A DNA stretch of 64,000 nucleotides from an uncultured Actinomycetota bacterium (GTDB taxonomy: Bacteria; Actinomycetota; Actinomycetes; Mycobacteriales; Mycobacteriaceae). Below the pieces are notes generated by a model. The model was not told where the DNA came from. It ran no database searches and saw only the letters and a list, made by a program, of their open reading frames with translations. This document shows positions 1,405 to 17,345 of this stretch, piece after piece; the stretch's first letter is position 1, and every line of letters starts with the position of its first letter. The translations under genes and the position numbers were made by a program. The stretch is from the NCBI GenBank assembly GCA_963845595.1, contig CAWJSU010000003.1:353045-417044 (forward strand), given 5' to 3'.

Positions 1405-1677
1405 GATCGGCGCGTGGGCTTAGCCTGAATCCGTGGACGGGCGGCTTCGTGGGGTCGTCGACATGGTTGCTTGCGGCTTTTCCTTGTCACGAGGGTTTTC
1501 GGGTCGGGCCTGGGATGGCGGGGTGGAGCGGCATTACGCCATCTGAAAGATTGCGAATCCCCTGTTCTCAAAACGTCGGGTCGATAGCGTTTGCAAGATG
1601 ATCCACGGAGCTCGGGGCGTCCGGCGCGGACCCCGACAAAACCGGCGCAACCCTGCGTTCCTCGAGACACCCCGACG

Positions 1678-3447
1678 ATGAGCGACGTGCTGCGATACCG
1701 GGTGGCGGTGCTGCCCGAACGCCATGAATTGGCGGTCACCATCACAGTCCCGTCCAGTGTCGGCGGCGTGACTTTACAACTTCAGTCGCCGACCTGGGTG
1801 CCTGGGGATTATTCGTTCAACCCATACGGCCGGGACGTGTTCGACGTCAAAGCCACGGACCTGGAAAGCGGCGCCGCGCTTGCGGTTCGACGGCAGGGAT
1901 GGCAGGGCCACGTTGTGCAGCGGGGCGGCGGCGACGTCGTGATCCACCACCGCGCCTACTGCTCCTCCTGGGAATTCAGCGAGGCGTGCGGCATCGTGGG
2001 TGATCGCGCCGCCGTCGTCACCGGGGCGCGCTATCTCTACGTCGGTGACTATGACGGCCCCTGCCAAGTGACCTACGACCTTCCGGAAGGTTGGGCACTA
2101 CATCACCCGTCCGGGGCTCTGCAGGTGAGGGAATTCACTTGGGAGTACCCCAGCTATCTGATCCTGCTCGACACACCGGTGTGCATGGGCAGCTTCGAGA
2201 AGCTCGTCAGTGATGTGCGCGGAACCGCCTTCTACCATGTCTTCATCGATGCGAGCGTGCTTGCGGCCGCCTCTCGACGTGGCTTCGTCGAACAGGTCGA
2301 CGCCGTCAGCACCCGCTACCACACGATGTTCGGGGGCTTCCCGTTCGAGGACTACACCTTCATCTATGGCTGTAATCCCAAGGCGGACTGGGGACTTGAG
2401 CACCTCACGTCGACCATGGTCGGCCTGGACGTGAACGTGTTCACCAACAATGACGCGAAGGCCACCGGCATCCGCACCTGCGCCCACGAACTTTTTCACG
2501 CCTGGAACGTCCGCCGGCTGCGCCCCGCCCCCCTCGAGCACCTGGATCTGGTCGGCGGGGACTTCACCGACGGGCTCTGGCTGGCCGAAGGATTTACCCG
2601 CTACTACGAATTCCTCACCTGCACCCGCACCGGCGTCTACACACCGGAGCAGTTCTTCAGCACGGTCGTCAACTATTACCGGCACCTGGAAGTGCTGCCC
2701 GCCTACCACCAGGTCAGCGCGGTCGATGCCTCGCTGGCGACCTTCCTCAATCACGGCAAAAAGTACCCGGGGCGGGTCAACAACTGCATCGACTACTACG
2801 ACAAAGGAATGCTCATCGCTTTCGGCGCTGACAGCGTTTTGCGCGCCGACAATTCCGGCACCCTGGATGAGGCCTTCGCCAACTTTTACACACGCTTTGC
2901 CGGACGCGGCGCCGGCTACACCTGCGCCGAGGTGCGGGATTTTTTCGAGGAGGTCCACCCCGGGCTGGGCTCACGGTTGTACAGGGAAGCCACCGAAGTC
3001 GCCGGATTGGATGTGGCTGGCCTGCTTGGCCGGCTCGGTTTCCGCGTGGACTACGAGACGGTTCCCTACCTCGGGCTCGTTCTGGCCAACGACACCGGCC
3101 CCGTCATTTACGGGGTCCTCGACACCGGCCCGGCCGCCGCGACCGGCATCGCCCCCGAGGACGTTGTGATCGCGATCGACGGCCTGTCCTTCGACTGCGA
3201 CGCGTTGAAGTGGGCGATCGGCAATCAGCAGAAGGTCGGGCTCACCGTGTCCCGGGGTAACCAGATCCTCACCTACCACACCGGCGTCAGACCGCGATCA
3301 CAGATCGGCCAGCTCAGCTGGATCGGGGACCAACAGCAGGCCAACCTCATCCAGGCGTGGCTTGACCAGGAATTCCACCCCGCGTCGGAGCAGGTGTTCC
3401 CGCTCGACTTCTACTCCAACTTCCACGGCCTCGAGACCGTGCTCTGA
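1678..3447 (+). CDS. M61 family (glycyl) aminopeptidase with C-terminal PDZ domain
   Basis: N-terminal SPTWVPGDY motif, GLEHLTST, zinc motif AHELFHAWNVRRLRP, LWLAEGFTRYY, YYDKG, PDZ-like GPAAATGIAPEDVVIAIDG; ATG at 1678 preferred over the TTG at 1591. Confidence 0.88.
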   Translation: MSDVLRYRVAVLPERHELAVTITVPSSVGGVTLQLQSPTWVPGDYSFNPYGRDVFDVKATDLESGAALAVRRQGWQGHVVQRGGGDVVIHHRAYCSSWEFSEACGIVGDRAAVVTGARYLYVGDYDGPCQVTYDLPEGWALHHPSGALQVREFTWEYPSYLILLDTPVCMGSFEKLVSDVRGTAFYHVFIDASVLAAASRRGFVEQVDAVSTRYHTMFGGFPFEDYTFIYGCNPKADWGLEHLTSTMVGLDVNVFTNNDAKATGIRTCAHELFHAWNVRRLRPAPLEHLDLVGGDFTDGLWLAEGFTRYYEFLTCTRTGVYTPEQFFSTVVNYYRHLEVLPAYHQVSAVDASLATFLNHGKKYPGRVNNCIDYYDKGMLIAFGADSVLRADNSGTLDEAFANFYTRFAGRGAGYTCAEVRDFFEEVHPGLGSRLYREATEVAGLDVAGLLGRLGFRVDYETVPYLGLVLANDTGPVIYGVLDTGPAAATGIAPEDVVIAIDGLSFDCDALKWAIGNQQKVGLTVSRGNQILTYHTGVRPRSQIGQLSWIGDQQQANLIQAWLDQEFHPASEQVFPLDFYSNFHGLETVL

Positions 3448-3532: not shown

Positions 3533-4690
3533 TCAGCCGGCGTGAATGCGTGCTGGGGGCAGTCGGTTCGGCATGCCCAGCTGGGTACCCGTGCGTCTGC
3601 GCCGCCAGAACGGTGAGCCCGCCCACCGTTGCTCGAGCTGATAGAAGTGGTTGCGGTTGGCTGTGTACTCTTCGAAATCGGCCGACACCGCCGCCGCATA
3701 GTCGGGGCCTGGGTCTTGGTCGGAGGACAATGCTTCGGTGAGGAAATCTGCCGCGCGCAGGCCGTTTTCGAGTGCGTGTTGAATGCCGAGTGAAGACAGG
3801 GGGTCGTGGCACGCGGCGGCATCGCCCACCGCCAGCCAGCGGGTGCCGGCGACCCGATCGAGCAGGTAGGAGACGCCGGCTCGGACGGTGAGGCTGCCGC
3901 GCAGAAAGCGGCAGCCGTCGAGCCGGGCGGCGATGTGCCGGGTGCCCAGCAGTGCGGCCAGCCACGTCTGGTCTCGAGCCAGCGCCTGCCGGCGCACGAT
4001 GTCGGGGTCTGAGGCGAAAGCCACTGCGAGCCGGCGGCGTGGCAGCGGCGCTGCATACCACCAGCCGTCTTCGACGGCTTCGAGCATGGTCAATTGCAGC
4101 GATGACGATCCGCTCGAGGTGTCGAAGAACCCGTAGATGAAGGTCAAACGATCAAGTAGACGCGGTGCGGCGCCCGCGCGTCGAGCCACCGCCGCGCGGT
4201 TTCCGGCTGCGTCAACAACGAAGCGCGCATCGATCGACCCGCGGGCGCCGCGACCATCCTGAACTTGAAGTCGCATGGAGTCAGGATAATCCTCGGAGCA
4301 GCCGATCACGGTGCCCGAATAATGCTGTACACCAGATGCTTTCGCTTGCAACAACAGGAAGGCGTCGAAGCGCGGCCGGTCCAGATGCCATCCCGGCCCG
4401 TAGGGACTGAGAAGAAAATCGTTGTGCCCCAGCGTGTCGCTGCCCCAACTTGAGCAGCTACCCAAGCACGGTTCGTGGCCGTCCTGACGGAAAGCCTCCC
4501 AGAGCTCCAGCTTGCTCAGGACAACGCTGGCCGCGGGTACCAAAGTCTCCCCGACACGTGGCCGGTGATGGACCGCAGGGTCGATCACGCAGATGTTGGT
4601 AAACCCCCGGCGCCGCAGCGCTATTGCGGTCGCACATCCCGCGGGTCCGCCGCCGACGACCGCAACGTCATAGATCTGCTGTGCGCTCAG
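3533..4690 (-). CDS. LodB/GoxB-type FAD-dependent oxidoreductase (probable CTQ cofactor maturation flavoprotein)
   Basis: YDVAVVGGGPAG Rossmann motif, GETL, GWHLDRPRFD, FVVDAAG, GWWYAAPLP, WLAVGDAA.CHDPLSSLGI; directly downstream of a LodA-like gene; start uncertain (CTG 4690 or GTG 4762). Confidence 0.8.
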   Translation of the reverse strand: MSAQQIYDVAVVGGGPAGCATAIALRRRGFTNICVIDPAVHHRPRVGETLVPAASVVLSKLELWEAFRQDGHEPCLGSCSSWGSDTLGHNDFLLSPYGPGWHLDRPRFDAFLLLQAKASGVQHYSGTVIGCSEDYPDSMRLQVQDGRGARGSIDARFVVDAAGNRAAVARRAGAAPRLLDRLTFIYGFFDTSSGSSSLQLTMLEAVEDGWWYAAPLPRRRLAVAFASDPDIVRRQALARDQTWLAALLGTRHIAARLDGCRFLRGSLTVRAGVSYLLDRVAGTRWLAVGDAAACHDPLSSLGIQHALENGLRAADFLTEALSSDQDPGPDYAAAVSADFEEYTANRNHFYQLEQRWAGSPFWRRRRTGTQLGMPNRLPPARIHAG

Positions 4691-7600
4691 TGAATGGCCC
4701 CCATCCCGTAGATCTTTCCCGTGGGATGCAGGTCGACCATGGCCGACGGCGTGGTGAGCCACATAGTGAACGGCACTTCCCCCACCAGCTTCGCGCCATC
4801 TTTGATCCAATCGCGCACAACGTCGCGGTAGGTCCCGGTCAGCGGCGATTTGGCGTTGAGGCCAAATGCTTCGCCCATCGGCCCTTTCGGGGCGATCAGT
4901 TGGGTGAAGAAGCGGCTTTGCGCCGGCTTTCCGCGTGTGATCATCCCGTTTTCGGGCAGCGCCAGAGCCTCCATGAGCGCGTGATTAGATTGTTCGAACC
5001 ACCACGTCATGGTGTGCGCGACACCGTCTGGATCGAACAACATCACGGTTCGATGGCCCGGGACACCCTGTTGTACTTCCCGGAGTTGGGTGATGAGTTC
5101 ATCCATGGCCAGAGGCGCCGGCAGTCCTGTTGGGGTGGGCGGCGGGGTTTGGGCCAGCGATTGCGTGTAAGCCGCCCATAGTGCGATTTCGTCGTCGGTG
5201 AATACCCGAAACATCGGGCCGGTCTCGAAGTTCATCGCGGCGTGCAACCGGCTGTTGGCCCAGTCGCCGGGGGTGATCCAGGCGTAGCGCACTAGGGCAT
5301 CCAGGAATCCGGATGGGTTGGAGAACCATTCGTCAATTCGGCTGGGGCCAAGCATGCGCTGTTGATGATTGCGGCTGCCGTAGGGCGCCTTTCGGCGGAT
5401 CATCTCGATCACTTGGTCGCGCAGCAGAGGTGGCTTGTCGGGATGGACTAGGTTCTTGAGTTTCTGACCGAACGAGTTTTCGGGGTCAAACGGAATGCCC
5501 CCAAAGGCCACGAACCCGTTCCAGATTCGCCGCCACCTGCTCTGAACACCCTTCTCTCCGCCATGGGTCCGCATGATTTGCAGCGACAGGCGCACGGCGT
5601 CGGCGGCACGTCGACCATGGCCGTTCACGGAGTTATCGATACCGATATGCATGACATAGAAGTGGGGATCAATCCCGTGGTATTTCAGCAGGTCTCGCGT
5701 CGGCTTGAGTTGCACGACATCCCATTCCAGCATCAGGGTCATGCCGAGGATCTCGGGATAGTACTCCTCGGTGAACTGCGAGATCGCCAACTGGAACGCC
5801 GGTACCAGGAAAGCGCTGTCAATGAACTGCGGGTCGAACGCAAAATCGCGGCTTTCGATGGGCGGCGGGTAGAAGCCGACGCTGTGGCACAGATCCCGGT
5901 AAATGTTGCAGTGGTTCTTGGCGATTTCGCCGTCGCCGAGCTCGTCCATGAAAATGGAGTACAGGATCGCCTGCACATCGTCCATCGGGCCGGTGCGGCC
6001 GATGTTTCGCAGCCACGCACCGTCGACGAGGTTGAACGGGGCCCACTGTTTGATCCGGGTGACGACATCGTCGTAGCTGCGAAAGACCGGGTCTGCTCCC
6101 GGATCGCTGTTGTCGGCCTCATCGACGAATCGTTGATAGATCAGCTCAAGGCGCTCCTGGAAGTCCTGCTCTGAGTAGCGGAAGAAGAGCTGATCTGCCG
6201 GGCACTTGTTGGGAGAGTTGGAAAACTCCTCGGCCTGTTTCAGCCAGTAATCAACGTAGGCGCGTGCGTCATCAAGAACTTCGGGATGGTTATTGACGTT
6301 CAGCAGCTTGTAGAACAGCTCCCGCGGGTCGTATTGGCTCGGATCCGGTTTATCCATATCCGTGCTGCTCGACAGGTTCGGAAAGGCTGCCACCGGTGTG
6401 CGCCCGGTGTCATCGAGCTGGCTTGCCACTTCGAGATACCACTGCGGTTCCAACGAAGGGTGGTGCTGATCGATTGCGGGCGCCTGCAGGACCACGCCGA
6501 TGCGGTGCCAATTTTTGAGCATGTCGCGGCGTTCTTGAAAGCGTCCCCAGTTCTCGGCGTCGTATGCGTCGGTACCCTCACCGCGAACCGACCAGAGCTG
6601 CTTGCCCAGCACGGGGGCTTTGGTTCCATCGGGCAGCACACCCAGGGTGACGTCGGCGGCCGCGTAGACGGCGACCGGACGCTGGGCCGGCCATGACCAG
6701 AACAGGGTCCGATTGCCTTTTGGATTGGGGTCGGGCGGATGGGTGGCGCAGGAGTTGTAATCGGTGTGCCAGGGCAGCGCCATGAATTTGGTCAGGTCGC
6801 CGGGCTCCAGCCCCTCATCATTGTGCCGGGGAACGTAACCGCACGACAGGACGGGCCCGGCGGCGTCGTGGCCGGGGTCGTAGTTGAGGTTTTTGCTCTT
6901 GACCCGAAACGGGCCCGCTCCCGACGTTTGCCACGGCTGGACATACAGTTTCGGCTCCCGCATGACGAAGGTGAGGTCGATGCCCGGGCTGAAACGCCCG
7001 CCCAGGCAGTTGACGAAAGTCGCCTTGTCCAGTGCTTCACCCGGGCCCAGCGCGTGACCGGATCCCGGGGCGAAATGGTCGAAACCTTCGCTCCAGCGCT
7101 GCAGGAAGAAGTACTGGGTCCGGCGCAACGTCAGGAAGGAATCCTGTCCCTCGCCGAGGTGCAACGGCATCAACGACGTGTTGGCTTGGTCGTCAGGGCA
7201 CCCCGGAGTACGAAATACCGCCTTGATTCCGGCAAGCTCTGTGGCGGTCGGATCGTCTTTTGCGGTAATGTCCGCCAGCCGTTTGTGAGCCGATATGGCG
7301 TGCGCGTTGAGGTTCGTTGTCCAGTGCTGCAGCACGGCGCTTTGGAAAATCGGTGCGATTTGATCGTCGAACGTGGGCTTATACGAGTCCTGGTAGCCGC
7401 CGCGGGCGGCGTCGTAGATATCCGGGGCCAGGCCAAGCTGCCGCACCCAACAGTCGTAGACGTCGTCCCACAGCGACACAACGTTGAGGATCTGGGGTGC
7501 ATAAGCGGGATCGGTGGCAGCCACCCACGCGCCATGGGCGGTCACGCGGGTGCCGTCGTCGAAGACCACGGTGGCTGATACCGGGCCGTCGGAGGTGTCA

Positions 7601-8550
7601 TCGAACCACTGATCGTTGTTCACGTCATCGCACAGGTGAACCGGGGCCTTCGCCCCGAAGCCGGCGGCGCGGCCGTATCCACCGACAACCAGCAGCCGTC
7701 CGCCGTCATCGGTGAGCAACTCACCGAGAGTATCGATGGGGCCGGCAGGGCAGTCCATATCGGGGAATGAGTTGTCGGGAAACAACTTCGGATAGCGATC
7801 CAGAGAGACGACTTCGTGCCGGCCCGCGTCGTAATAGGACGCGGCGGTGGCGTCATCGAAATTGACCCGCGGCGCCGAGCGACCAGATACGGTCCGCGGG
7901 CCGGGATCGATGGTCAACTGCTGCAGCCGTACAGGATCATCGAGTACAGCGATCAGGCCCTTGACTGTTGGCTCGTTTGGCGGCGACGCCGGTGGCGTGC
8001 AATCGGCCGTTCCCTTGGGGAACTGCGGGTTTCGGATCTGGGGGTCTTTCTCTCCGGTGTAGGTCACCATCGGGCCTGCCTCGTCCAACCGAAAGGTGTT
8101 GGCTTTCTTGTTGGCCAGGTGCACTGTCCAGATGATGTCCTGCACGGTTTTCCCGTCGATGGTTGCGCCGATGAAGACTTCTGTTCCGTCCCCGCGGGGC
8201 CATGGTTCCTCGGCCAGCGAGGGGTAGGCGAAGATGCGGAAGCGGGCAGCCTGACGCTTGCGGGCTCCGTGACTGTCCCGCAAATCCGAGCTGCGGATCG
8301 TTTCGGGGCTGTCAGCGTTGGCGTCAGCGCGGATCGGCAGACCGCCCATCGCATCGAGTGAATCCAACGTCGGGGCACCGGCCATGGTTTCTGGGGCGAT
8401 GACATATTCCTCGCTATTGCCGACTCTGGCGATACCGATGGCCGGATGGATCCGGAAGGTACCCATCGGCGGGGTGCCGGATTTCTTTCGTGCTTTCGGC
8501 GCCGCGGCGGAGCTTGTCTTGCCGCTAGCTTTGCTCGCTTGCCTGGTCAC
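4687..8550 (-). CDS. LodA/GoxA family CTQ-dependent oxidase fused to an iron-containing redox enzyme (HDO, heme-oxygenase-like diiron) domain
   Basis: LodA motifs FRIHPAIGIARVGNS, RQAARFRIF, GELLTDDGGRLLVVGG, WFDDTSDGPV, PGDLTKFMALPWHTDYNSC, WSWPAQRP; HDO motifs VDGAW, DELGDG..NH, LEW, MHIGIDN..GH; GTG 8550 preceded by GGGAG. Confidence 0.85.
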   Translation of the reverse strand: MTRQASKASGKTSSAAAPKARKKSGTPPMGTFRIHPAIGIARVGNSEEYVIAPETMAGAPTLDSLDAMGGLPIRADANADSPETIRSSDLRDSHGARKRQAARFRIFAYPSLAEEPWPRGDGTEVFIGATIDGKTVQDIIWTVHLANKKANTFRLDEAGPMVTYTGEKDPQIRNPQFPKGTADCTPPASPPNEPTVKGLIAVLDDPVRLQQLTIDPGPRTVSGRSAPRVNFDDATAASYYDAGRHEVVSLDRYPKLFPDNSFPDMDCPAGPIDTLGELLTDDGGRLLVVGGYGRAAGFGAKAPVHLCDDVNNDQWFDDTSDGPVSATVVFDDGTRVTAHGAWVAATDPAYAPQILNVVSLWDDVYDCWVRQLGLAPDIYDAARGGYQDSYKPTFDDQIAPIFQSAVLQHWTTNLNAHAISAHKRLADITAKDDPTATELAGIKAVFRTPGCPDDQANTSLMPLHLGEGQDSFLTLRRTQYFFLQRWSEGFDHFAPGSGHALGPGEALDKATFVNCLGGRFSPGIDLTFVMREPKLYVQPWQTSGAGPFRVKSKNLNYDPGHDAAGPVLSCGYVPRHNDEGLEPGDLTKFMALPWHTDYNSCATHPPDPNPKGNRTLFWSWPAQRPVAVYAAADVTLGVLPDGTKAPVLGKQLWSVRGEGTDAYDAENWGRFQERRDMLKNWHRIGVVLQAPAIDQHHPSLEPQWYLEVASQLDDTGRTPVAAFPNLSSSTDMDKPDPSQYDPRELFYKLLNVNNHPEVLDDARAYVDYWLKQAEEFSNSPNKCPADQLFFRYSEQDFQERLELIYQRFVDEADNSDPGADPVFRSYDDVVTRIKQWAPFNLVDGAWLRNIGRTGPMDDVQAILYSIFMDELGDGEIAKNHCNIYRDLCHSVGFYPPPIESRDFAFDPQFIDSAFLVPAFQLAISQFTEEYYPEILGMTLMLEWDVVQLKPTRDLLKYHGIDPHFYVMHIGIDNSVNGHGRRAADAVRLSLQIMRTHGGEKGVQSRWRRIWNGFVAFGGIPFDPENSFGQKLKNLVHPDKPPLLRDQVIEMIRRKAPYGSRNHQQRMLGPSRIDEWFSNPSGFLDALVRYAWITPGDWANSRLHAAMNFETGPMFRVFTDDEIALWAAYTQSLAQTPPPTPTGLPAPLAMDELITQLREVQQGVPGHRTVMLFDPDGVAHTMTWWFEQSNHALMEALALPENGMITRGKPAQSRFFTQLIAPKGPMGEAFGLNAKSPLTGTYRDVVRDWIKDGAKLVGEVPFTMWLTTPSAMVDLHPTGKIYGMGAIH

Positions 8551-8698
8551 TGTCCGCTCCCGTCTTCTCAAATCCCAACTGCCTCAACCGAAAATCAGAA
8601 GGTCAAACCCCTGGCGCTACCGCGAACCGTCAATCGTGAGCCACGTCGGGATAGACGCCCGACCGTGTCCACACCGCAGACCGCGCCGGATCCGTTGA

Positions 8699-10666
8699 CT
8701 ATTTCGGATCCCATCTCGAATACCGTGGGTAGTTATCGTATTTAAAGCCACTTACAAATTCTGCACCGGTGTTTTTGGCGATGTGGATGACGGCGTCGAT
8801 TGCCATCCGCATCGCAGGTTCGGTCCAACCCCCTTCCACCGAATATGCTTCGCCTGCACAATAGACGTGCGACTCCGCACTATGGTCTTGGTTGTACCTT
8901 AGCAACGTGTAGTCGTGTTCCCAACTTCGAGACCGTGTCAGTTTGGCGCAACCGCGGTACGTTGGCATCTTGGCCCAATGAATGACGCTCGGCTGGTCGC
9001 GATTGACGTAAGGCGAGATTGGCCTGTTGCGGGACTGCATGAGAATATCGTCGAGCTTGGTAAGGCAGCGCCGCGCGAGTGCTTCATCACTCGTCGATGC
9101 CAGTAGCTTGTTGGCGTCGTCCTCCCACGTATAACTAGCCAGCAGCACGCCCGGATCCGAGAACGCCTTGGTGGTCACTCCATAGCCATAAACACCCTGG
9201 ACGAACGTATCCGTGACCAGTGTTTGCGGGATGAATGGATCACCTGCAGGATTGAGCTCCTCCCAAAAGCGCCGAGTGAGCGGGAAAAACACCTTGCAAC
9301 TCGTGATCCAGTGCGACATCGCGACAGCGGCCTGCATGTTGAACGGCATGATGTGAGCGTCGAATCCTTCGAAGTTGATACTCATCTGCAGGGCCCAAGT
9401 CGAAGGAGTGATGACCACCGCGTCGTAGTCATTCTTGCGGGCTTTCGATTCGACGCGGACTCTTCCATCGTCGAGATGAGTGATTTTTTCGACACCGGTG
9501 CGGGTGTACAGGTTGACGTCATAGTCCGTCGATTGGATCGCGTCATACAAAGAGTCCGAGTCAACGACGCCGCTCTTGACAGGCTCATAGAAGAGGCATT
9601 CGGCGAAGGACTGCACCCCTAAATACTCGGGTGGCTGCAAGGAATGACCGAGGCTATCGGTTGGACGGGAGTCGAATTCTGGGCCCGGAGCATAGTCGCC
9701 GTCGGTGCCGAACTTGCCCTGGATCAACCGATGCCCCGACCCATAACCGAAGAGCAGCGTGCGTATCGGAAACAGACACGAGATGTCGTAGAACGCTCCC
9801 CAGCCGCCGTCACCCGCGCCAATCACGTAGAACAGGTTGGCTTCTTCGCCTTCCATCCCCAGCCCCCCGAAGTACCCGGGCTCTTTTTCGCTATAAGAGT
9901 CGATTTCCTTTTGGAAGACGAAGTCACGAAAGCTCATCGCCCAGTAATGCTGCACAAAGGCGTGCCAGAAGCCTTCCCATTCAACCCAACTTTGAGCATA
10001 TTTTTGCTGCGCAACACCTTTAAACAACTTCGCGAAGCGAGCCCATCTATGGTAAACAACTCTTAGCGTGTCGTCCGGCGGTTCTTGATCTTCTTTCTTC
10101 CAAATCAGAAGAGTGGGCGGCTTCTTGTCGTCCGGTTTAGGCTTCGCCATGTTCGGCCCATAACCACCGTTGACCCATACGCCGGTATCCGCTGTTGTGG
10201 CTCCCGGATTGGGAAACTCTTGCGTCTTGATCTTGAAGATTTTTCGGTAGAAGTCGAGGACGCAGTTTTGGCTTTCCACCCGATCGAAGAAAGGCATGCG
10301 CATAGCGCCCATCTCCATCGTTGTATGCTGGCCTTCGAGTCGCTTTGAGTAGGTCCGTCCGCCTATGCGCGAGCTGGCCTCATAAATATCGATGTTGATG
10401 TATCCGCAGCGAAAGAGTTCGCGCGCAGCGACGAGCCCAGCTACACCCGCCCCGATTATTGCGATACGTAACTTACGATCTTGATTTTCGGCTATCGACG
10501 AATCGTTTGCCAGCTCCAAGAGCCGATAATAGTTGAAGTTGAAATCCGCGGTATTCGGCCAGTGAAAACGCCAATCCTCTACTGGGTTTTGGCCGGCGGA
10601 CCCGCCGGCAGGCTGTGAACCGAGGGGTGCTTGCGCCTTGGAACCCTTGGTTGTTGAGGGTCGCAT
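8699..10666 (-). CDS. Flavin amine oxidase family, tryptophan/lysine 2-monooxygenase (IaaM/DavB)-like amino-acid oxidoreductase
   Basis: RIAIIGAGVAGLVAA, IGGRTYS, EMGAMRMP, SYTWEDDANKLL, AGEAYS.EGGW; ATG 10666 preceded by GGAAGGA. Confidence 0.8.
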   Translation of the reverse strand: MRPSTTKGSKAQAPLGSQPAGGSAGQNPVEDWRFHWPNTADFNFNYYRLLELANDSSIAENQDRKLRIAIIGAGVAGLVAARELFRCGYINIDIYEASSRIGGRTYSKRLEGQHTTMEMGAMRMPFFDRVESQNCVLDFYRKIFKIKTQEFPNPGATTADTGVWVNGGYGPNMAKPKPDDKKPPTLLIWKKEDQEPPDDTLRVVYHRWARFAKLFKGVAQQKYAQSWVEWEGFWHAFVQHYWAMSFRDFVFQKEIDSYSEKEPGYFGGLGMEGEEANLFYVIGAGDGGWGAFYDISCLFPIRTLLFGYGSGHRLIQGKFGTDGDYAPGPEFDSRPTDSLGHSLQPPEYLGVQSFAECLFYEPVKSGVVDSDSLYDAIQSTDYDVNLYTRTGVEKITHLDDGRVRVESKARKNDYDAVVITPSTWALQMSINFEGFDAHIMPFNMQAAVAMSHWITSCKVFFPLTRRFWEELNPAGDPFIPQTLVTDTFVQGVYGYGVTTKAFSDPGVLLASYTWEDDANKLLASTSDEALARRCLTKLDDILMQSRNRPISPYVNRDQPSVIHWAKMPTYRGCAKLTRSRSWEHDYTLLRYNQDHSAESHVYCAGEAYSVEGGWTEPAMRMAIDAVIHIAKNTGAEFVSGFKYDNYPRYSRWDPK

Positions 10667-10698
10667 CGTTGACCGTCCTTCCATGCGCTGTGGCGCTA

Positions 10699-10858: not shown

Positions 10859-13543
10859 CTAACTGTTGTGGGCTGCGGGTGTGTGGGTGTCGAAATTTCG
10901 TGCCGCGAGCGAACGCGCAACGTCAGCCTTCCCCTCGCGCACAATGCGCTTCAACGCCGAGGGCACATCGCCCTGTAGTAGGAAAGCGTGAGCAGCGTCG
11001 ACCGCGCTCGAGCTGACGTCCCAGGAGGGATAAAGATTTGTGGCAAGGGTCTTTTGGACCTCCGGGGAACGTGACTGCCAGACCGGCAGGATGTTGGCGA
11101 AGTACTGCGATGTGTAGTCGCGCAGTAGATCCTCCTGTCCAGGGGAGTTAAAGCCGGCGCTGATTGCGCGCGCCGCGCTGTTGGCGAGCTCGGTCTTGGT
11201 CATCAGTTGTTGCCAGGCCCCGTCTTTGACCTTGCGCTGCGGACGCGAGGCTCTGGCTTGTTCGGCGTTGCGCTGGCCTTGGTCAGACTTGTCGGCATTC
11301 GCCTGTGCGTCGATGAATGGAGATTCGGGGCTTTGCCCGTCGATGACTCCCGCTGTGGCCAGCCCGATGATAATGCGCCACCGCAGATCAATATCCACCT
11401 TCGGGTCGGGCAGATGCAGTTTTTCGGGATCGTCGGTGCTGAGCAGCGCCTGCAGCAGATCGGTATGCCGAGGAGAGAGGACCGAGGTGCATAGCGTGTT
11501 GACATAGGCGAGTTGTGCGTCCGAACCGGGTACCGCACCTTGGGCCAGGGTGTTCAGCGTGTCGGCAAACCCCGGCCAACCTACGTCCCGCGCCCACGCG
11601 GGGTCGGCGTAGTAGCGCAGCGCTGTTTGAGTCTGCGCCAGCAGTTGCTCGGCCACGGTGGGTTCGGTCTCGTACTGCACGCTTGTTGCCACTTGTTCGA
11701 CGTAGTCGCGGGCAGCCAGCTCTGCTCCGCGGGTCATCTCCCACAGGGTCGACCATGCCAGGCTGCGTGGCAGTGGGTCTTTGATGTCGCCGATCCGTGC
11801 TCGCACCGTCTGCAGCGATATTGGGTCCAGGCGCTGGGAACAATACGTCAAGTCCTCGTCGTTGACGAGGATCAGCTTGCCGCGCGAAAAACCAATCAGG
11901 GCAAGCACATCAGCCTTTTCACCTGCGATGGCTACCCGTTCTGGTCCGTGCACCCGGACCAGCTTGCCCGAGTCGTTATCGTCGTAGATGCCGATCGCAA
12001 TGTGGTGGGTGCGGAGCTGACCGGGCGGAGGTGTTACGTCGTCGGTGGGTTCCGGGGCGCCGGGGACCGCTCGGCTTTGGGTGACCGCGAAGCGGGTGAA
12101 TCTGTTGTCGGCGTCGACGTCGAAGTCGGCACGCAGCCTGTTGATTCCTGTTGTTTCCAGCCACTGGTGGCCCCATTCCGACAGGTCAACGCGAGCTGCC
12201 TTGCCCAGGGCGTCGCGTAGGTCCCTGAACGTCGCGTTCTGGTACTTGTGGGTGCCGAAATAGTCTCGTAGGCCTTGTAAGAATGCGTCTTGGCCGATGT
12301 ATGCGACTAATTGCTTGAGCACGCTGGCACCCTTGCGGTACGTGATGCCATCGAAGTTGTTGAGGACGTCTTCGAGGTTGTTCATGTCGGCGATCACGGG
12401 GTGTGTCGTAGGCATTTCGTCTTGGCGGTAAGCCTTTGCTTTTTCGGTGTTGGCGAACGTCGTCCAGGCTTGCTTGAAGTCGGTGGCGTCAGCCTGGCAC
12501 CAAAACGAGGCGTAGGTGGCGAATGATTCGTTGAGCCACAGGTCATCCCACCATTTCATGGTCACCAGGTCGCCGAACCACATGTGCGCCAGTTCATGGG
12601 CGATGGTGTCGGCGCGCTTCTCGTAGGCGGCGTTTGTCACTTTGCCGCGGAAGATCTGGTCTTCGGTGAGCACCACGGCGCCAACGTTTTCCATCCCGCT
12701 GTAGTTAAATTGCGGCACGAAGATTTGATCGTATTTGCCGAACGGGTAGGGCAAATGAAAGTTATTGTGGTAGAACGCAAAGCACTTTTTGGTCAAATCG
12801 AAAACCGCCTTGGCATCCATAAACTTCTCTAGCTTCTGGCGGCAGAAGATACGCAGGGGGATGCTGCCGAATTGGTCACCGTAGGTGTCGTCGTGGACCG
12901 CGTAGGGTCCGGCGATGAAGGCGACGAGATAGGTGCTCATCCGCTCGGTGGCCGCAAAGGTGTGCTTCGTTGCGCCACCGTCAGGCTCCATGTTGGTCGT
13001 CGCACCGCTGGATATGACCTGCCAGTGCTTGGGCGCGGTGACGGTCACATCGAACTGGGCTTTGAGGTCGGGCTGGTCAAAGCAGGCGAAGACTCGTCTG
13101 GCGTCTGCAGGCTCAAACTGGGTGTACAGGTAGACCTCATCGCGGTCTTGGTTTTCAACATCGTGGTCTTGCTTCTCAACGAAGCGGTGCAGGCCCTCAC
13201 CGGAATTGGAGTAGCTGCACAAGGCGTCGACAACCAGGACGTTGTGTCCGGTTAGTTCGCTCAGGTGTATCCGGCCGTCTTTTTCGACGCCGGAAGTATC
13301 GACGTCCTTTCCGTTGAGGGTGGCACTTCGGACCTCGGATGCGATGAGATCTACAAAGCTGCTGGCGCCTGGGGTTGCAATGAACTCCACTGTCGTAATA
13401 GAGCGGAACGTGCCTTGCCCCGGGCGGCCGCTTCCGTCTGTGACGTCGAGGTGGATTTGATAGCGGTTGACATTCCCGATGGCTCGGGCCCGCTCATCGG
13501 CGTCTTTGCGGGAGAGCTGCGGGGTGACTGTTTGTGCTTGCAC
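10859..13543 (-). CDS. pepN: Aminopeptidase N (M1 family), accessory lower-GC copy
   Basis: GEGLHRF, YLYTQFEPADARRVFACFDQPDLKA, SGMEN (GXMEN variant), HELAHMWFG, WLNESFA, FDGITYRKGASVLKQL; GTG start after GGAAGGA. Confidence 0.88.
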   Translation of the reverse strand: MQAQTVTPQLSRKDADERARAIGNVNRYQIHLDVTDGSGRPGQGTFRSITTVEFIATPGASSFVDLIASEVRSATLNGKDVDTSGVEKDGRIHLSELTGHNVLVVDALCSYSNSGEGLHRFVEKQDHDVENQDRDEVYLYTQFEPADARRVFACFDQPDLKAQFDVTVTAPKHWQVISSGATTNMEPDGGATKHTFAATERMSTYLVAFIAGPYAVHDDTYGDQFGSIPLRIFCRQKLEKFMDAKAVFDLTKKCFAFYHNNFHLPYPFGKYDQIFVPQFNYSGMENVGAVVLTEDQIFRGKVTNAAYEKRADTIAHELAHMWFGDLVTMKWWDDLWLNESFATYASFWCQADATDFKQAWTTFANTEKAKAYRQDEMPTTHPVIADMNNLEDVLNNFDGITYRKGASVLKQLVAYIGQDAFLQGLRDYFGTHKYQNATFRDLRDALGKAARVDLSEWGHQWLETTGINRLRADFDVDADNRFTRFAVTQSRAVPGAPEPTDDVTPPPGQLRTHHIAIGIYDDNDSGKLVRVHGPERVAIAGEKADVLALIGFSRGKLILVNDEDLTYCSQRLDPISLQTVRARIGDIKDPLPRSLAWSTLWEMTRGAELAARDYVEQVATSVQYETEPTVAEQLLAQTQTALRYYADPAWARDVGWPGFADTLNTLAQGAVPGSDAQLAYVNTLCTSVLSPRHTDLLQALLSTDDPEKLHLPDPKVDIDLRWRIIIGLATAGVIDGQSPESPFIDAQANADKSDQGQRNAEQARASRPQRKVKDGAWQQLMTKTELANSAARAISAGFNSPGQEDLLRDYTSQYFANILPVWQSRSPEVQKTLATNLYPSWDVSSSAVDAAHAFLLQGDVPSALKRIVREGKADVARSLAARNFDTHTPAAHNS

Positions 13544-15116: not shown

Positions 15117-17345
15117 GTGCGCCACGAGGCGCTGGATAGATCGAGAGGTGGTGAGAGACCGTCTCCCTCGGGCCGTCGCAGCGGCCTGGGAGAAGCTGGG
15201 GGCAGCCCGATCCGGGGAACGCCGGTGAGGGTGGCAAGCGGCCCCGACAAAGGCGAGACGTGCTGGCACTGCCAGACGGTACGGGCTCGCCGAGCAAGGT
15301 CAGAAGGTACAGCGTGAGCGAACCAGTGGTTGACGCCCCGTAACCGTTCAACCGGCTCGAATCTGGTGGATATGGGCCGGAATGCAGCGCACAGCTACCA
15401 CCACGATCCCCTGAAGGGAATTTGTGGTGGTGGTTGACTCCGAAGCCGTCTTTGTCTGTCGGTGGGGAGGCCGCGTCGAAGGTCTGCGGCGTAGGTGCGG
15501 CGATGCTGCCGGGGTAGAGCTGGGTGCCTCCCTGACCGATCGATCGTTCGGTGAACGTGGGAACCATCCCGCGCTCCGCCCACCCGGTCCGGGCAGCCGG
15601 TCCGGTTCGGGTGGAAGGCCCGTGTCCGGCCGAGGAGCGCTGGGGTGGGGCGGAGGTCCCGTAGTAGTCGCGGGCGTGACGACCCGTCGAGGAGGTCGCG
15701 AGAGGCGACCACAGGGCAAAGGGGACCAGCAAGACAGCAGTGGAAGTTCTGGAATGTCAGGAGGAGTGGTCGCCGGTGAATACCGACGAATTCGAGCACG
15801 CTGTGTGTGAGGCGCGCCGACGGGTACTGAAGATCCAGACCAAGCTGCACTGTTGGGCTCGCGATGATCCTCATCGCCGGTTCGACGACCTGTTCAACCT
15901 CGTTGCCGACCCCGCATTCTTGTTGGTGGCGTGGGATCGGGTGAGCGGGAACAAGGGTGCCGCAACGGCCGGGGTGGACGGGCGTACCGCTCGTTCGGTC
16001 GCGGCGTTGCAGGGTGTCGAGGAGTTCCTCGACGAGCTGCGGAACAGTTTGAAGGACCGTAGTTTCCGCCCGTTGCCGGTGCGTGAGCGGATGATTCCGA
16101 AGGCGAATGGAAAGTTGCGTCGTTTAGGGATTCCCACCGTGGCGGATCGGGTGGTCCAGGCATCGTTGAAGCTGGTGTTGGAGCCGATTTTCGAGGCTGA
16201 GTTTCTACCGTGCTCCTACGGTTTCCGCCCGAAACGTCGGACTCATGACGCGGTGGCCGAGGTTCGTTTCTTCACGACCCGTCCTCGTTGCTACGAGTGG
16301 ATCGTGGAGGGCGACATCAAAGCCTGTTTCGACGAAATCGCGCATCCGGCCCTCATGGACCGGGTGCGTCGGCGCGTCGGAGATAAACGCGTTCTGGTTC
16401 TGGCGAAGGCGTTCCTGAAGGCGGGCATCCTCACCGAGGAACGCCACTTGGAGGACACCACCGCCGGCACCCCGCAGGGTGGAATTTTGTCGCCATTGTT
16501 GGCTAATGTCGCGTTGTCGGTGCTGGACGAATATATCGCCCAGGCTCCTGGTGGGCCGAGCACCGGCAAGACGGAGCGGGCAAGACGGCTCCGACACGGA
16601 CTACCGAATTTTTGGCTGGTCCGCTATGCCGACGACTGGTGTCTGATGGTCAAGGGCACCAGGGCTGACGCCGAGGCGCTGCAGGAGCAGATCGCCGCCG
16701 TGTTGGCGATGATGGGATTGCGTCTGTCACCGGACAAGACCCTGATCACCCATATCGACGAGGGGCTGGATTTCCTCGGGTGGCACATCCAGCGTCACCG
16801 CAAACGGGGAACCAGCCGTTCCTACGTCTACACCTATCCGTCAAAGAAAGCCGTTCAGGCCGCCATGCGGAAGGTCAAGACGATTTCACGACAGGTCTCG
16901 ACCAACCAGCCAATCGATGAACTGCTGCGCCGCTTGAACGCGACGTTGCGGGGATGGGCTGGGCATTTCCGGGCCGGGGTGTCCTCGGCTGTCTTCTCCT
17001 ACCTCAACCACTATGCGTGGCAAACGGTTTGGCGATGGATACGCCGCAAACACCCGAAATCGACCTGGAAACACCTCCGCCGGCAGTACTGCGGCGGACG
17101 ATGGTGGCCAACCGGAGACGAGATGACACTGATCGATCTGTCCAAGATCGGCACGACCCGATACCGCTACCGCGGATCGGTCATCCCGACGCCCTGGCCG
17201 GTCACCGCCGACGAGGAGCACCACGACACCGCAACGGGTCTTGTGGAGAGCCCGGTGCATTGAGAGATGCACGCCGGGTTCGGGAAGCGGCCCGGAGAAA
17301 CGGAACAGCCGCAAGGCTGTCACCGCGCTCCGGGCCGACTTTCAC
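15117..17345 (+). mobile_element. Group II intron (ribozyme + RT/maturase), actinobacterial type
   Basis: 5' GTGCGCC at 15117; domain V GAGCCCGGTGCAT...ATGCACGCCGGGTTC at ~17248-17282; domain VI ending ...GACTTTCAC (AC) at 17345; candidate EBS1 TTGTCT (15452-15457) pairs with the 5' exon AGGCAA. Confidence 0.9.
15776..17263 (+). CDS. ltrA: Group II intron reverse transcriptase/maturase, no endonuclease domain evident
   Basis: TAGVDG, RPLPVRERMIPK, LGIPTVADRVVQ, SYGFRP, GTPQGGILSPLLAN, RYADDW, LDFLG, LRGWAGHF; GTG 15776 after AGGAGGAG. Confidence 0.93.
   Translation: MNTDEFEHAVCEARRRVLKIQTKLHCWARDDPHRRFDDLFNLVADPAFLLVAWDRVSGNKGAATAGVDGRTARSVAALQGVEEFLDELRNSLKDRSFRPLPVRERMIPKANGKLRRLGIPTVADRVVQASLKLVLEPIFEAEFLPCSYGFRPKRRTHDAVAEVRFFTTRPRCYEWIVEGDIKACFDEIAHPALMDRVRRRVGDKRVLVLAKAFLKAGILTEERHLEDTTAGTPQGGILSPLLANVALSVLDEYIAQAPGGPSTGKTERARRLRHGLPNFWLVRYADDWCLMVKGTRADAEALQEQIAAVLAMMGLRLSPDKTLITHIDEGLDFLGWHIQRHRKRGTSRSYVYTYPSKKAVQAAMRKVKTISRQVSTNQPIDELLRRLNATLRGWAGHFRAGVSSAVFSYLNHYAWQTVWRWIRRKHPKSTWKHLRRQYCGGRWWPTGDEMTLIDLSKIGTTRYRYRGSVIPTPWPVTADEEHHDTATGLVESPVH

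Follow-up and report, generated by a model that had tools for sequence, protein, structure and literature searches.

The window analysed here is a 64,000-nucleotide stretch of contig CAWJSU010000003.1 (positions 353,045 to 417,044 of the forward strand) from the assembly of an uncultured Actinomycetota bacterium of the family Mycobacteriaceae (GCA_963845595.1). Its reverse strand carries a single gene in which a quinoprotein half of the LodA/GoxA family, with the residues predicted to form a cysteine tryptophylquinone (CTQ) cofactor, is joined to a heme-oxygenase-like diiron (HDO) domain. A gene for a LodB/GoxB-like flavoprotein maturase lies directly downstream. The fusion protein is a real, widely conserved and uncharacterised bacterial enzyme built from two known kinds of enzyme. 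Residues of the fusion protein are numbered from the TTG codon at 8571, and confidence in its structural models is given as the predicted local distance difference test (pLDDT) and the predicted template modelling score (pTM). The parts of the two genes are as follows.

4687-8571, reverse strand: fusion open reading frame (ORF), uninterrupted, 1294 codons counted from TTG 8571, stop codon at 4687-4689
7519-8448, reverse strand: LodA_N (PF17990), residues 42-351, Pfam E 3e-53, aligned to the LodA structures 3WEU and 2YMW
6730-7143, reverse strand: LodA_C (PF18417), residues 477-614, Pfam E 8e-34
6691-6762, reverse strand: CTQ signature PWHTDYNSC...FWSWPAQRP, with Asp604 at 6760-6762, Cys608 at 6748-6750 and Trp627 at 6691-6693
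6337-6399, reverse strand: low-confidence linker from the LodA-like half to the HDO module, residues ~725-745, pLDDT ~54-55 in the model of residues 95-1294
5524-6051, reverse strand: HDO core, Haem_oxygenas_2 (PF14518), residues 841-1016, Pfam E 4e-18 (fragment alone, E 5e-19)
4690-5523, reverse strand: conserved C-terminal extension, residues 1017-1294 (278 aa), with the invariant His1069
3533-4810, reverse strand: lodB/goxB-like flavoprotein maturase gene, start TTG 4810 or GTG 4762, identified with NCBIfam

Two likely starts were found for the fusion gene. GTG 8548-8550 (residue 8) has GGGAG upstream and fits the 1287-aa database entry of the protein, and ATG 8464-8466 (residue 36) lies at the position where most homologues start, with M-x-x-FRIHPAIGIARVGNS. 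The GTG is the more likely gene start, with the ATG as the other candidate. No signal peptide was detected in the fusion protein or its homologues. A scan for promoters and terminators was uninformative, with no promoters and nine terminator-like sites against 6.5 expected. A sequence-only reading made earlier had proposed that LodA-type and PF14518-type domains share this chain, and Pfam bore this out with strong matches to LodA_N, LodA_C and PF14518, the last scoring 66-69 bits against a gathering cut-off of 28.9. The frame is one gene and not an assembly fusion of two, as the same three-domain layout is present in other genomes and in independent assemblies, and the frame is also uninterrupted in complete Caulobacter and Bradyrhizobium genomes. 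The model of residues 95-1294 had a mean pLDDT of 83.6 and a pTM of 0.60, and its linker of ~20 residues had a low pLDDT. In a model of the module (residues 700-1294; mean pLDDT 79.7), the first ~40 residues were below 50.

To our knowledge, lysine epsilon-oxidase and glycine oxidase are the only activities known in the LodA/GoxA family. The N-terminal half of the fusion combines LodA_N and LodA_C with the LodA fold, the Cys and Trp predicted to form CTQ, an Asp four residues before the Cys and an adjacent lodB/goxB-type gene, all of which define this family. The codons proposed earlier for the CTQ pair were exact, with 6748-6750 encoding Cys608 (WHTDYNSC) and 6691-6693 encoding Trp627 (FWSWPAQRP). 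In a phmmer search of the PDB, this half aligned to LodA (2YMW, 3WEU) with E ~1e-45 and more weakly to GoxA (E 4.5e-13), and D604 and C608 were placed onto D512 and C516 of LodA and onto D678 and C682 of GoxA. D604, C608, W625 and W627 were invariant among 80 aligned homologues; W627 is the Trp retained before [P/C]-A-x-RP in all lineages, including the very divergent fused and stand-alone relatives. A Foldseek search with the 95-1294 model returned LodA structures (including 3WEV) at E 6e-22, with a template modelling score of 0.62-0.64 when normalised to LodA, and GoxA at 4e-14. The NCBIfam equivalog models were not reached, with 240 bits against a cut-off of 600 for LodA and 151 bits against 750 for GoxA. 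Because these scores lie far under both cut-offs, the N-terminal half is classed, on sequence, as a member of the LodA/GoxA family that is an orthologue of neither LodA nor GoxA.

A rapidly expanding set of unusual reactions, among them N-oxygenation, N-N bond formation and C-C cleavage, is being traced to HDO enzymes, whose electron supply in vivo is unclear. A profile built from the fused HDO modules only had no match in the PDB, and a broader profile was needed to reach SznF. The profile-to-SznF alignment placed three His and three carboxylates on core helices 1-3 (E877, H887, E949, H975, D979 and H985), as is expected of an HDO, and added a seventh ligand.

5617-6024, reverse strand: predicted seven-ligand dimetal site, from the profile-to-SznF alignment (E 2.7e-4)
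6022-6024, reverse strand: D850, corresponding to SznF E189
5941-5943, reverse strand: E877, corresponding to SznF E215
5911-5913, reverse strand: H887, corresponding to SznF H225
5725-5727, reverse strand: E949, corresponding to SznF E281
5647-5649, reverse strand: H975, corresponding to SznF H311
5635-5637, reverse strand: D979, corresponding to SznF D315
5617-5619, reverse strand: H985, corresponding to SznF H318

The motifs from which the sequence-only reading had assembled an apparently complete ligand set were all found (VDG 849-851, DELG 876-879, NH 886-887, LEW 948-950, MHIGID 974-979 and GH 984-985), and the set is complete by homology, each motif mapping to a metal ligand of SznF. 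The seven predicted ligands were invariant or at least 90% conserved in the fused, stand-alone and flavin adenine dinucleotide (FAD)-fused relatives described below. Foldseek with the module model ranked HrmI, SznF and RohS first, all of which are N-oxygenases, followed by CADD, BesC, FlcD, PqqC and TenA; the 48 best PDB matches were all HDO, PqqC or TenA folds. D850-G851 is invariant and stands at a helix break in both models, aligned with SznF E189. SznF was found to have an unexpected seventh ligand, Glu189, where a turn breaks auxiliary helix 2, and this extra auxiliary-helix carboxylate is conserved in N-oxygenating HDOs and absent in CADD, UndA and BesC (McBride et al., 2021, PMC7848743). 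By this comparison, the module may tentatively be assigned to the N-oxygenase (SznF) type. Some homologues bear the UniRef name 'Tyrosinase copper-binding domain'. Residues 968-979 (DPHFYVMHIGID, 5635-5670) fit the PROSITE tyrosinase pattern, D-P-x-F-[LIVMFYW]-x2-H-x3-D, so a chance match of this pattern to the HDO ligand helix probably accounts for the name.

The HDO core proposed by the sequence-only reading stood, but the module is larger than that core, owing to the conserved 278-aa extension. HDO and extension together are an autonomous module of ~550 aa. No Pfam or NCBIfam match was found for the extension, nor an NCBIfam match for the whole module. An exhaustive search with the extension gave 254 cluster representatives at 50% identity, in all of which it is C-terminal. 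Most of its long carriers are LodA fusions of 1103-1471 aa. The chain ends in a conserved GMGxxH-COOH, with His as the final residue (GMGAIH at 4690-4707), and this ending is common to the fused modules and the stand-alone modules of Mycobacterium. The C-terminal tail had a pLDDT of 83-89 in the 95-1294 model against 30-59 in the model of the isolated module, which may reflect the deeper alignment of the former (80 versus 23 sequences).

The lodB-like gene begins within the 3' end of the fusion gene, and the overlap spans 76-124 nt according to which of its start codons is used. Its product scored 267 bits for LodB, 262 for GoxB and 175 for QhpG in NCBIfam, all under the equivalog cut-offs. 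The gene is an obligatory partner: lodB adjoins the fusion gene in every fused locus with enough flank, usually with an overlap of 4 nt. A conserved third gene was sought among 85 flanking ORFs of 27 fused loci and not found; even the most frequent families, a PSDC-type decarboxylase and a cytochrome c, were limited to three loci each, and an S10 peptidase came next with two. Since lodB is the only constant neighbour, the fusion gene and lodB are a self-contained two-gene cassette.

The three-domain architecture was found in at least 120 clusters at 90% identity, with proteins of ~1230-1320 aa from many phyla and independent assemblies. The carriers include Caulobacter, Bradyrhizobium, Massilia, Sphingomonas, Micromonosporaceae, Iamia and Pseudonocardiales, as well as Bryobacteraceae, Pyrinomonadaceae, Isosphaeraceae and Kofleriaceae. 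The fusion is 55-65% identical across Actinomycetota, Pseudomonadota, Acidobacteriota, Planctomycetota and Myxococcota, and taxa are interleaved in the trees. This cross-phylum identity, together with the interleaved taxa, indicates horizontal transfer of the cassette among at least five phyla. The genome of the window holds one copy of the fusion, and the module was absent from all 40 relatives that were searched, 24 of them from the same genus. Longer LodA-HDO forms (1340-1410 aa) contained no DOMON or other detectable inserted domain and showed weak similarity to QH-AmDH_gamma at the CTQ loop. One protein of 1827 aa (P0247) carries a Peptidase_S8 (subtilase), LodA_N, LodA_C, HDO and the C-terminal domain on a single chain.

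The sequence-only reading had expected similar fusions to exist in databases as uncharacterised proteins, and they had indeed been tabulated already: five LodA-like proteins with pfam14518 were listed in 2015, with their role left to future experiments (Campillo-Brocal et al., 2015, PMC4417212, Table 3). Two of our cluster representatives have the lengths of two entries in that table (1409 and 1413 aa), and in both the LodA domains are N-terminal and the HDO C-terminal. Our literature search found no characterisation of the fusion, the table entry being its only mention. New here are the HDO and C-terminal module on its own in Mycobacterium and its fusion to an unrelated FAD amine oxidase with a DOMON domain.

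The relatives of the two halves were then compared separately. The LodA half is nearest to stand-alone LodA-like proteins (44-54% identity), which come, among others, from Shewanella, Pseudoalteromonas, Thalassomonas and Marinicella and are each accompanied by a lodB of their own. A split-gene (Rosetta-stone) arrangement was sought and rejected, as no HDO gene lay within 6 kb of the stand-alone LodA-like genes in 19 loci. In locus L026, nested in the fused clade, the HDO module has been lost and LodA and lodB have been kept. Two loci (L027 and L029) carry very divergent LodA halves, 28% identical to that of the window and on very long branches, with HDO halves that are 44-50% identical and branch beside the main fused clade. 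A Mycobacterium clade of ~560 aa proteins consists of the module alone, with no lodA or lodB nearby, and is the only clade verified as truly stand-alone. Four other candidates (P0126, P0132, P0156 and P0161) were discarded as stand-alone HDOs, being fusions that are frameshifted, disrupted by an insertion sequence (IS) or truncated at a contig end. Decayed copies were also seen: L049 (Aromatoleum anaerobium) is broken by DDE_3 transposases, and frameshifts, which may be long-read assembly errors, split L048 and L052.

Four of the long carriers of the module lack LodA (P0258, P0277, P0286 and P0226, the last probably truncated). These proteins of 1138-1691 aa consist of an FAD amine-oxidase/L-amino-acid-oxidase-like domain, a DOMON domain, the HDO and the C-terminal domain, an architecture that seems undescribed. 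In a quick tree, their HDO modules formed one clade nested among the LodA-fused ones. Because they nest in this way, the N-terminal oxidase was swapped for a non-homologous one and the module kept. The layout suggests an electron-transfer chain feeding the dimetal site. In cellobiose dehydrogenase, a flavin domain and a DOMON-type cytochrome feed an oxygenase, and the FAD-DOMON-HDO proteins may, by analogy, work in a similar manner.

Beyond the cassette, the following genes were identified in the window.

1591-3447, forward strand: M61 glycyl aminopeptidase, flanking the cassette
8699-10684, reverse strand: flavin amine oxidase family protein, 661 aa, closest solved structures tryptophan 2-monooxygenase (4IV9) and L-amino acid oxidase/monooxygenase (3WE0)
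10859-13543, reverse strand: M1 aminopeptidase, flanking the cassette on the other side
15740-17263, forward strand: ORF encoding RVT_1 (reverse transcriptase) and GIIM (group II intron maturase) domains

The flavin amine oxidase was considered as a conserved partner and rejected, as it is absent from all loci but L053, the 85%-identical relative of the window. The bracketing of the cassette by M61 and M1 peptidases also occurs in L053; in L048 an M61 orthologue adjoins lodB with an S15 peptidase nearby, and in L024 the gene after lodB encodes an M1 peptidase. In four loci (L053:6697-8340, L002:8311-9909, L020:4023-5648 and L021:3-428), the gene immediately upstream of the fusion encodes an S10 carboxypeptidase, and these proteins, from Alphaproteobacteria and L053, are 61-70% identical among themselves. 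The window itself has no S10 gene at the fusion, with 128-148 nt between the amine-oxidase gene and the fusion gene. The recurrence of exopeptidase neighbours points, weakly, to free amino acids as the substrates. A gene of the PSDC/PS_Dcarbxylase family (pyruvoyl decarboxylase-like) adjoins lodB in 3 of the 27 fused loci, including L001:14910-16190, and could be an amine-forming partner. The ORF at 15740-17263 is likely a group II intron, consistent with a mobile or accessory region.

Taken together, we consider it somewhat better than an even prospect that the fusion is a bifunctional two-cofactor enzyme with its own maturase, in which amine oxidation at CTQ drives oxygen insertion by the HDO. 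In such an enzyme, LodB would build CTQ from Cys608 and Trp627, and the N-terminal ~700 aa would oxidatively deaminate a primary amine, most likely one on a free amino acid or on an amine derived from an amino acid, to an aldehyde and NH3. The two electrons taken from the amine at CTQ would then reach the diiron site by one of two routes, either as H2O2 that reacts with the diferric form (a peroxide shunt) or by direct transfer from the reduced CTQ. The HDO would thus insert oxygen, most likely on nitrogen, with no external reductant and no release of H2O2, and the net reaction by either route would be amine + S + O2 -> aldehyde + NH3 + S-O. Catalysis by either half, the nature of the substrate, the assignment of N-oxygenation to the HDO and the coupling route are what we infer from the comparisons above. 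N-oxygenation is the most likely second reaction because of the seven-ligand signature, and coupling to amine-oxidase chemistry is proposed because the same module is joined to two unrelated types of amine oxidase. What both of these partners would have in common is generic: an amine is oxidised to a carbonyl product and NH3, and two electrons are gained, which appear as H2O2 if O2 accepts them. The presence of the module on the two very divergent LodA lineages of L027 and L029 also speaks for coupling, and the DOMON of the flavin version hints at the electron route. More tentatively, and short of an even prospect, these proteins could represent a class of self-sufficient dimetal oxygenases, in which CTQ (or FAD and DOMON) would serve the HDO site as its own reductase or source of peroxide, with neither an external reductant nor release of H2O2.

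Several observations weigh against a coupled enzyme of this kind. The module occurs alone in Mycobacterium and the LodA half has a stand-alone sister clade, which shows that each half can function separately. The relative placement of the two halves is of low confidence (pTM 0.60, low-pLDDT linker), with no fixed interface or channel predicted, and the protein of the window lacks anything equivalent to the DOMON of the FAD-type fusions. With an Asp as the extra ligand in place of the Glu of SznF, the module is assigned to the N-oxygenases on the strength of a published correlation. The first two of these would also suit a merely metabolic fusion, in which the halves carry out separate pathway steps, perhaps acting in turn on one amino-acid substrate, and are joined for co-expression and stoichiometry, with the HDO using O2 and cellular reductant. 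The flexible linker and the absence of a predicted fixed interface are as such a fusion would have them, and so is L026, which dropped the HDO and kept LodA and LodB. A shared pathway-specific substrate is, however, a poor explanation for the retention of the module on the swap to an FAD amine oxidase, whereas a need of the module for something that amine oxidases in general supply would readily account for it, and no other pathway gene is conserved nearby. We regard uncoupled halves as rather unlikely, though worth keeping in view.

A protective HDO, which would remove the H2O2 of a cytoplasmic CTQ oxidase in the manner of a peroxidase or catalase and form no specific oxygenated product, is improbable. 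Its appeal is that H2O2 would arise in the cytoplasm, given the absence of a signal peptide from the fusion and its homologues, and that other LodA-like proteins bear catalase-like domains for which detoxification has been proposed (PMC4417212; bioRxiv 10.64898/2026.03.27.714854). The substrate-helix turn and the predicted seven-ligand site of the module are, however, those of substrate-oxidising HDOs, and in Mycobacterium the module stands alone with no oxidase nearby. No characterised HDO is known to act as a peroxidase. The sequence-only reading had left two roles for the diiron site side by side, the use of the oxidase product or its peroxide, and assistance in cofactor maturation. The occurrence of the module on an FAD amine oxidase favours the former, and the latter is disfavoured. 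As a built-in second maturase, the HDO would hydroxylate Trp627 or form the crosslink; the making of CTQ does take several oxygenations, and the protein to be modified has the module on its own chain. Such a role is nevertheless highly improbable, because the module survives without LodA and LodB, stays on a flavoprotein that has no CTQ, and never replaces lodB, which is kept beside every fused gene with enough flank and is all that the closest stand-alone LodA-like clade and L026 possess. That two genes have been read as one, through an assembly or annotation artefact or a pseudogene, is a negligible prospect: some database entries are split or disrupted (the frameshifts of L048 and L052, the IS elements of L049), but the frame is intact here and in more than 100 independent clusters, with catalytic residues invariant in both halves.

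As a portable cassette that brings its maturase along, the conserved LodA-HDO fusion lends itself directly to experiment. If the proposed coupling is true, a dimetal oxygenase would here be driven in a new manner, probably with a new amino-acid-derived product. If the oxygenase is also self-sufficient, the oxidation of one amine would pay for the oxygenation of another position or molecule. This would be a natural answer to the recycling of unstable HDO cofactors and would give LodA-type quinoproteins a second physiological role besides H2O2 production. If the coupling is false, there would still be a large uncharacterised HDO clade (the 254 representatives noted above) and a testable N-oxygenase prediction.

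The fusion was also compared with its nearest known systems. With LodA, the L-lysine epsilon-oxidase of Marinomonas mediterranea (2YMW, 3WEU, 3WEV), it shares the two Pfam domains, the fold, the Asp-x3-Cys with its downstream Trp and a lodB-type flavoprotein gene directly downstream. The LodA half is only ~22-23% identical to LodA, however, the fusion carries the additional ~550-aa HDO module and it is without evidence of secretion. The spacing from Cys to Trp is 19 residues in the fusion and presumably 65 in LodA, whose CTQ-forming Trp we take to be Trp581. The substrate is probably not lysine; the LodA-like groups outside group IA showed no lysine oxidase activity in the 2015 survey (PMC4417212). 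With the glycine oxidase GoxA (6BYW and its mutants; maturase GoxB), the fusion shares the family, the CTQ motif and the short Cys-Trp spacing, but it is more distant from GoxA than from LodA, has no twin-arginine translocation (Tat) leader and again carries the extra HDO module.

The C-terminal half shares the HO-like helical fold with the central domain of SznF (6VZY), HrmI (9N1X) and RohS (9PFW) at 13-16% identity. All seven metal ligands of SznF have aligned counterparts, the auxiliary-helix carboxylate being matched by a putative ligand, Asp850, at the helix break, whereas a 3-residue insertion precedes the last His of core helix 3 (H-x3-D-x5-H here, H-x3-D-x2-H in SznF). The HDO is joined here to an oxidase and followed by a different, 278-aa domain; in SznF it is joined to N-terminal and cupin domains, the cupin forming the C-terminal part. 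In the FAD amine-oxidase, DOMON and HDO proteins, the same module, its invariant ligands included, likewise sits on the C-terminal side of an amine-oxidising redox domain, but that oxidase is a flavoprotein with no relation to LodA, and the DOMON lies between oxidase and HDO. Other LodA-like proteins are fused to the catalase-like domain pfam00199 (PMC4417212, Table 3; Ca. Penulousia baltica preprint, bioRxiv 10.64898/2026.03.27.714854). These, too, are uncharacterised and put a CTQ oxidase and a peroxide-reactive metal domain on one chain, with the difference that the partner there is an N-terminal domain of the haem catalase fold and here a C-terminal dimetal HDO module. The catalase-like domains of these proteins make the pairing of LodA-like proteins with a peroxide-reactive domain a recurring theme in the family, which speaks for the proposed coupling.

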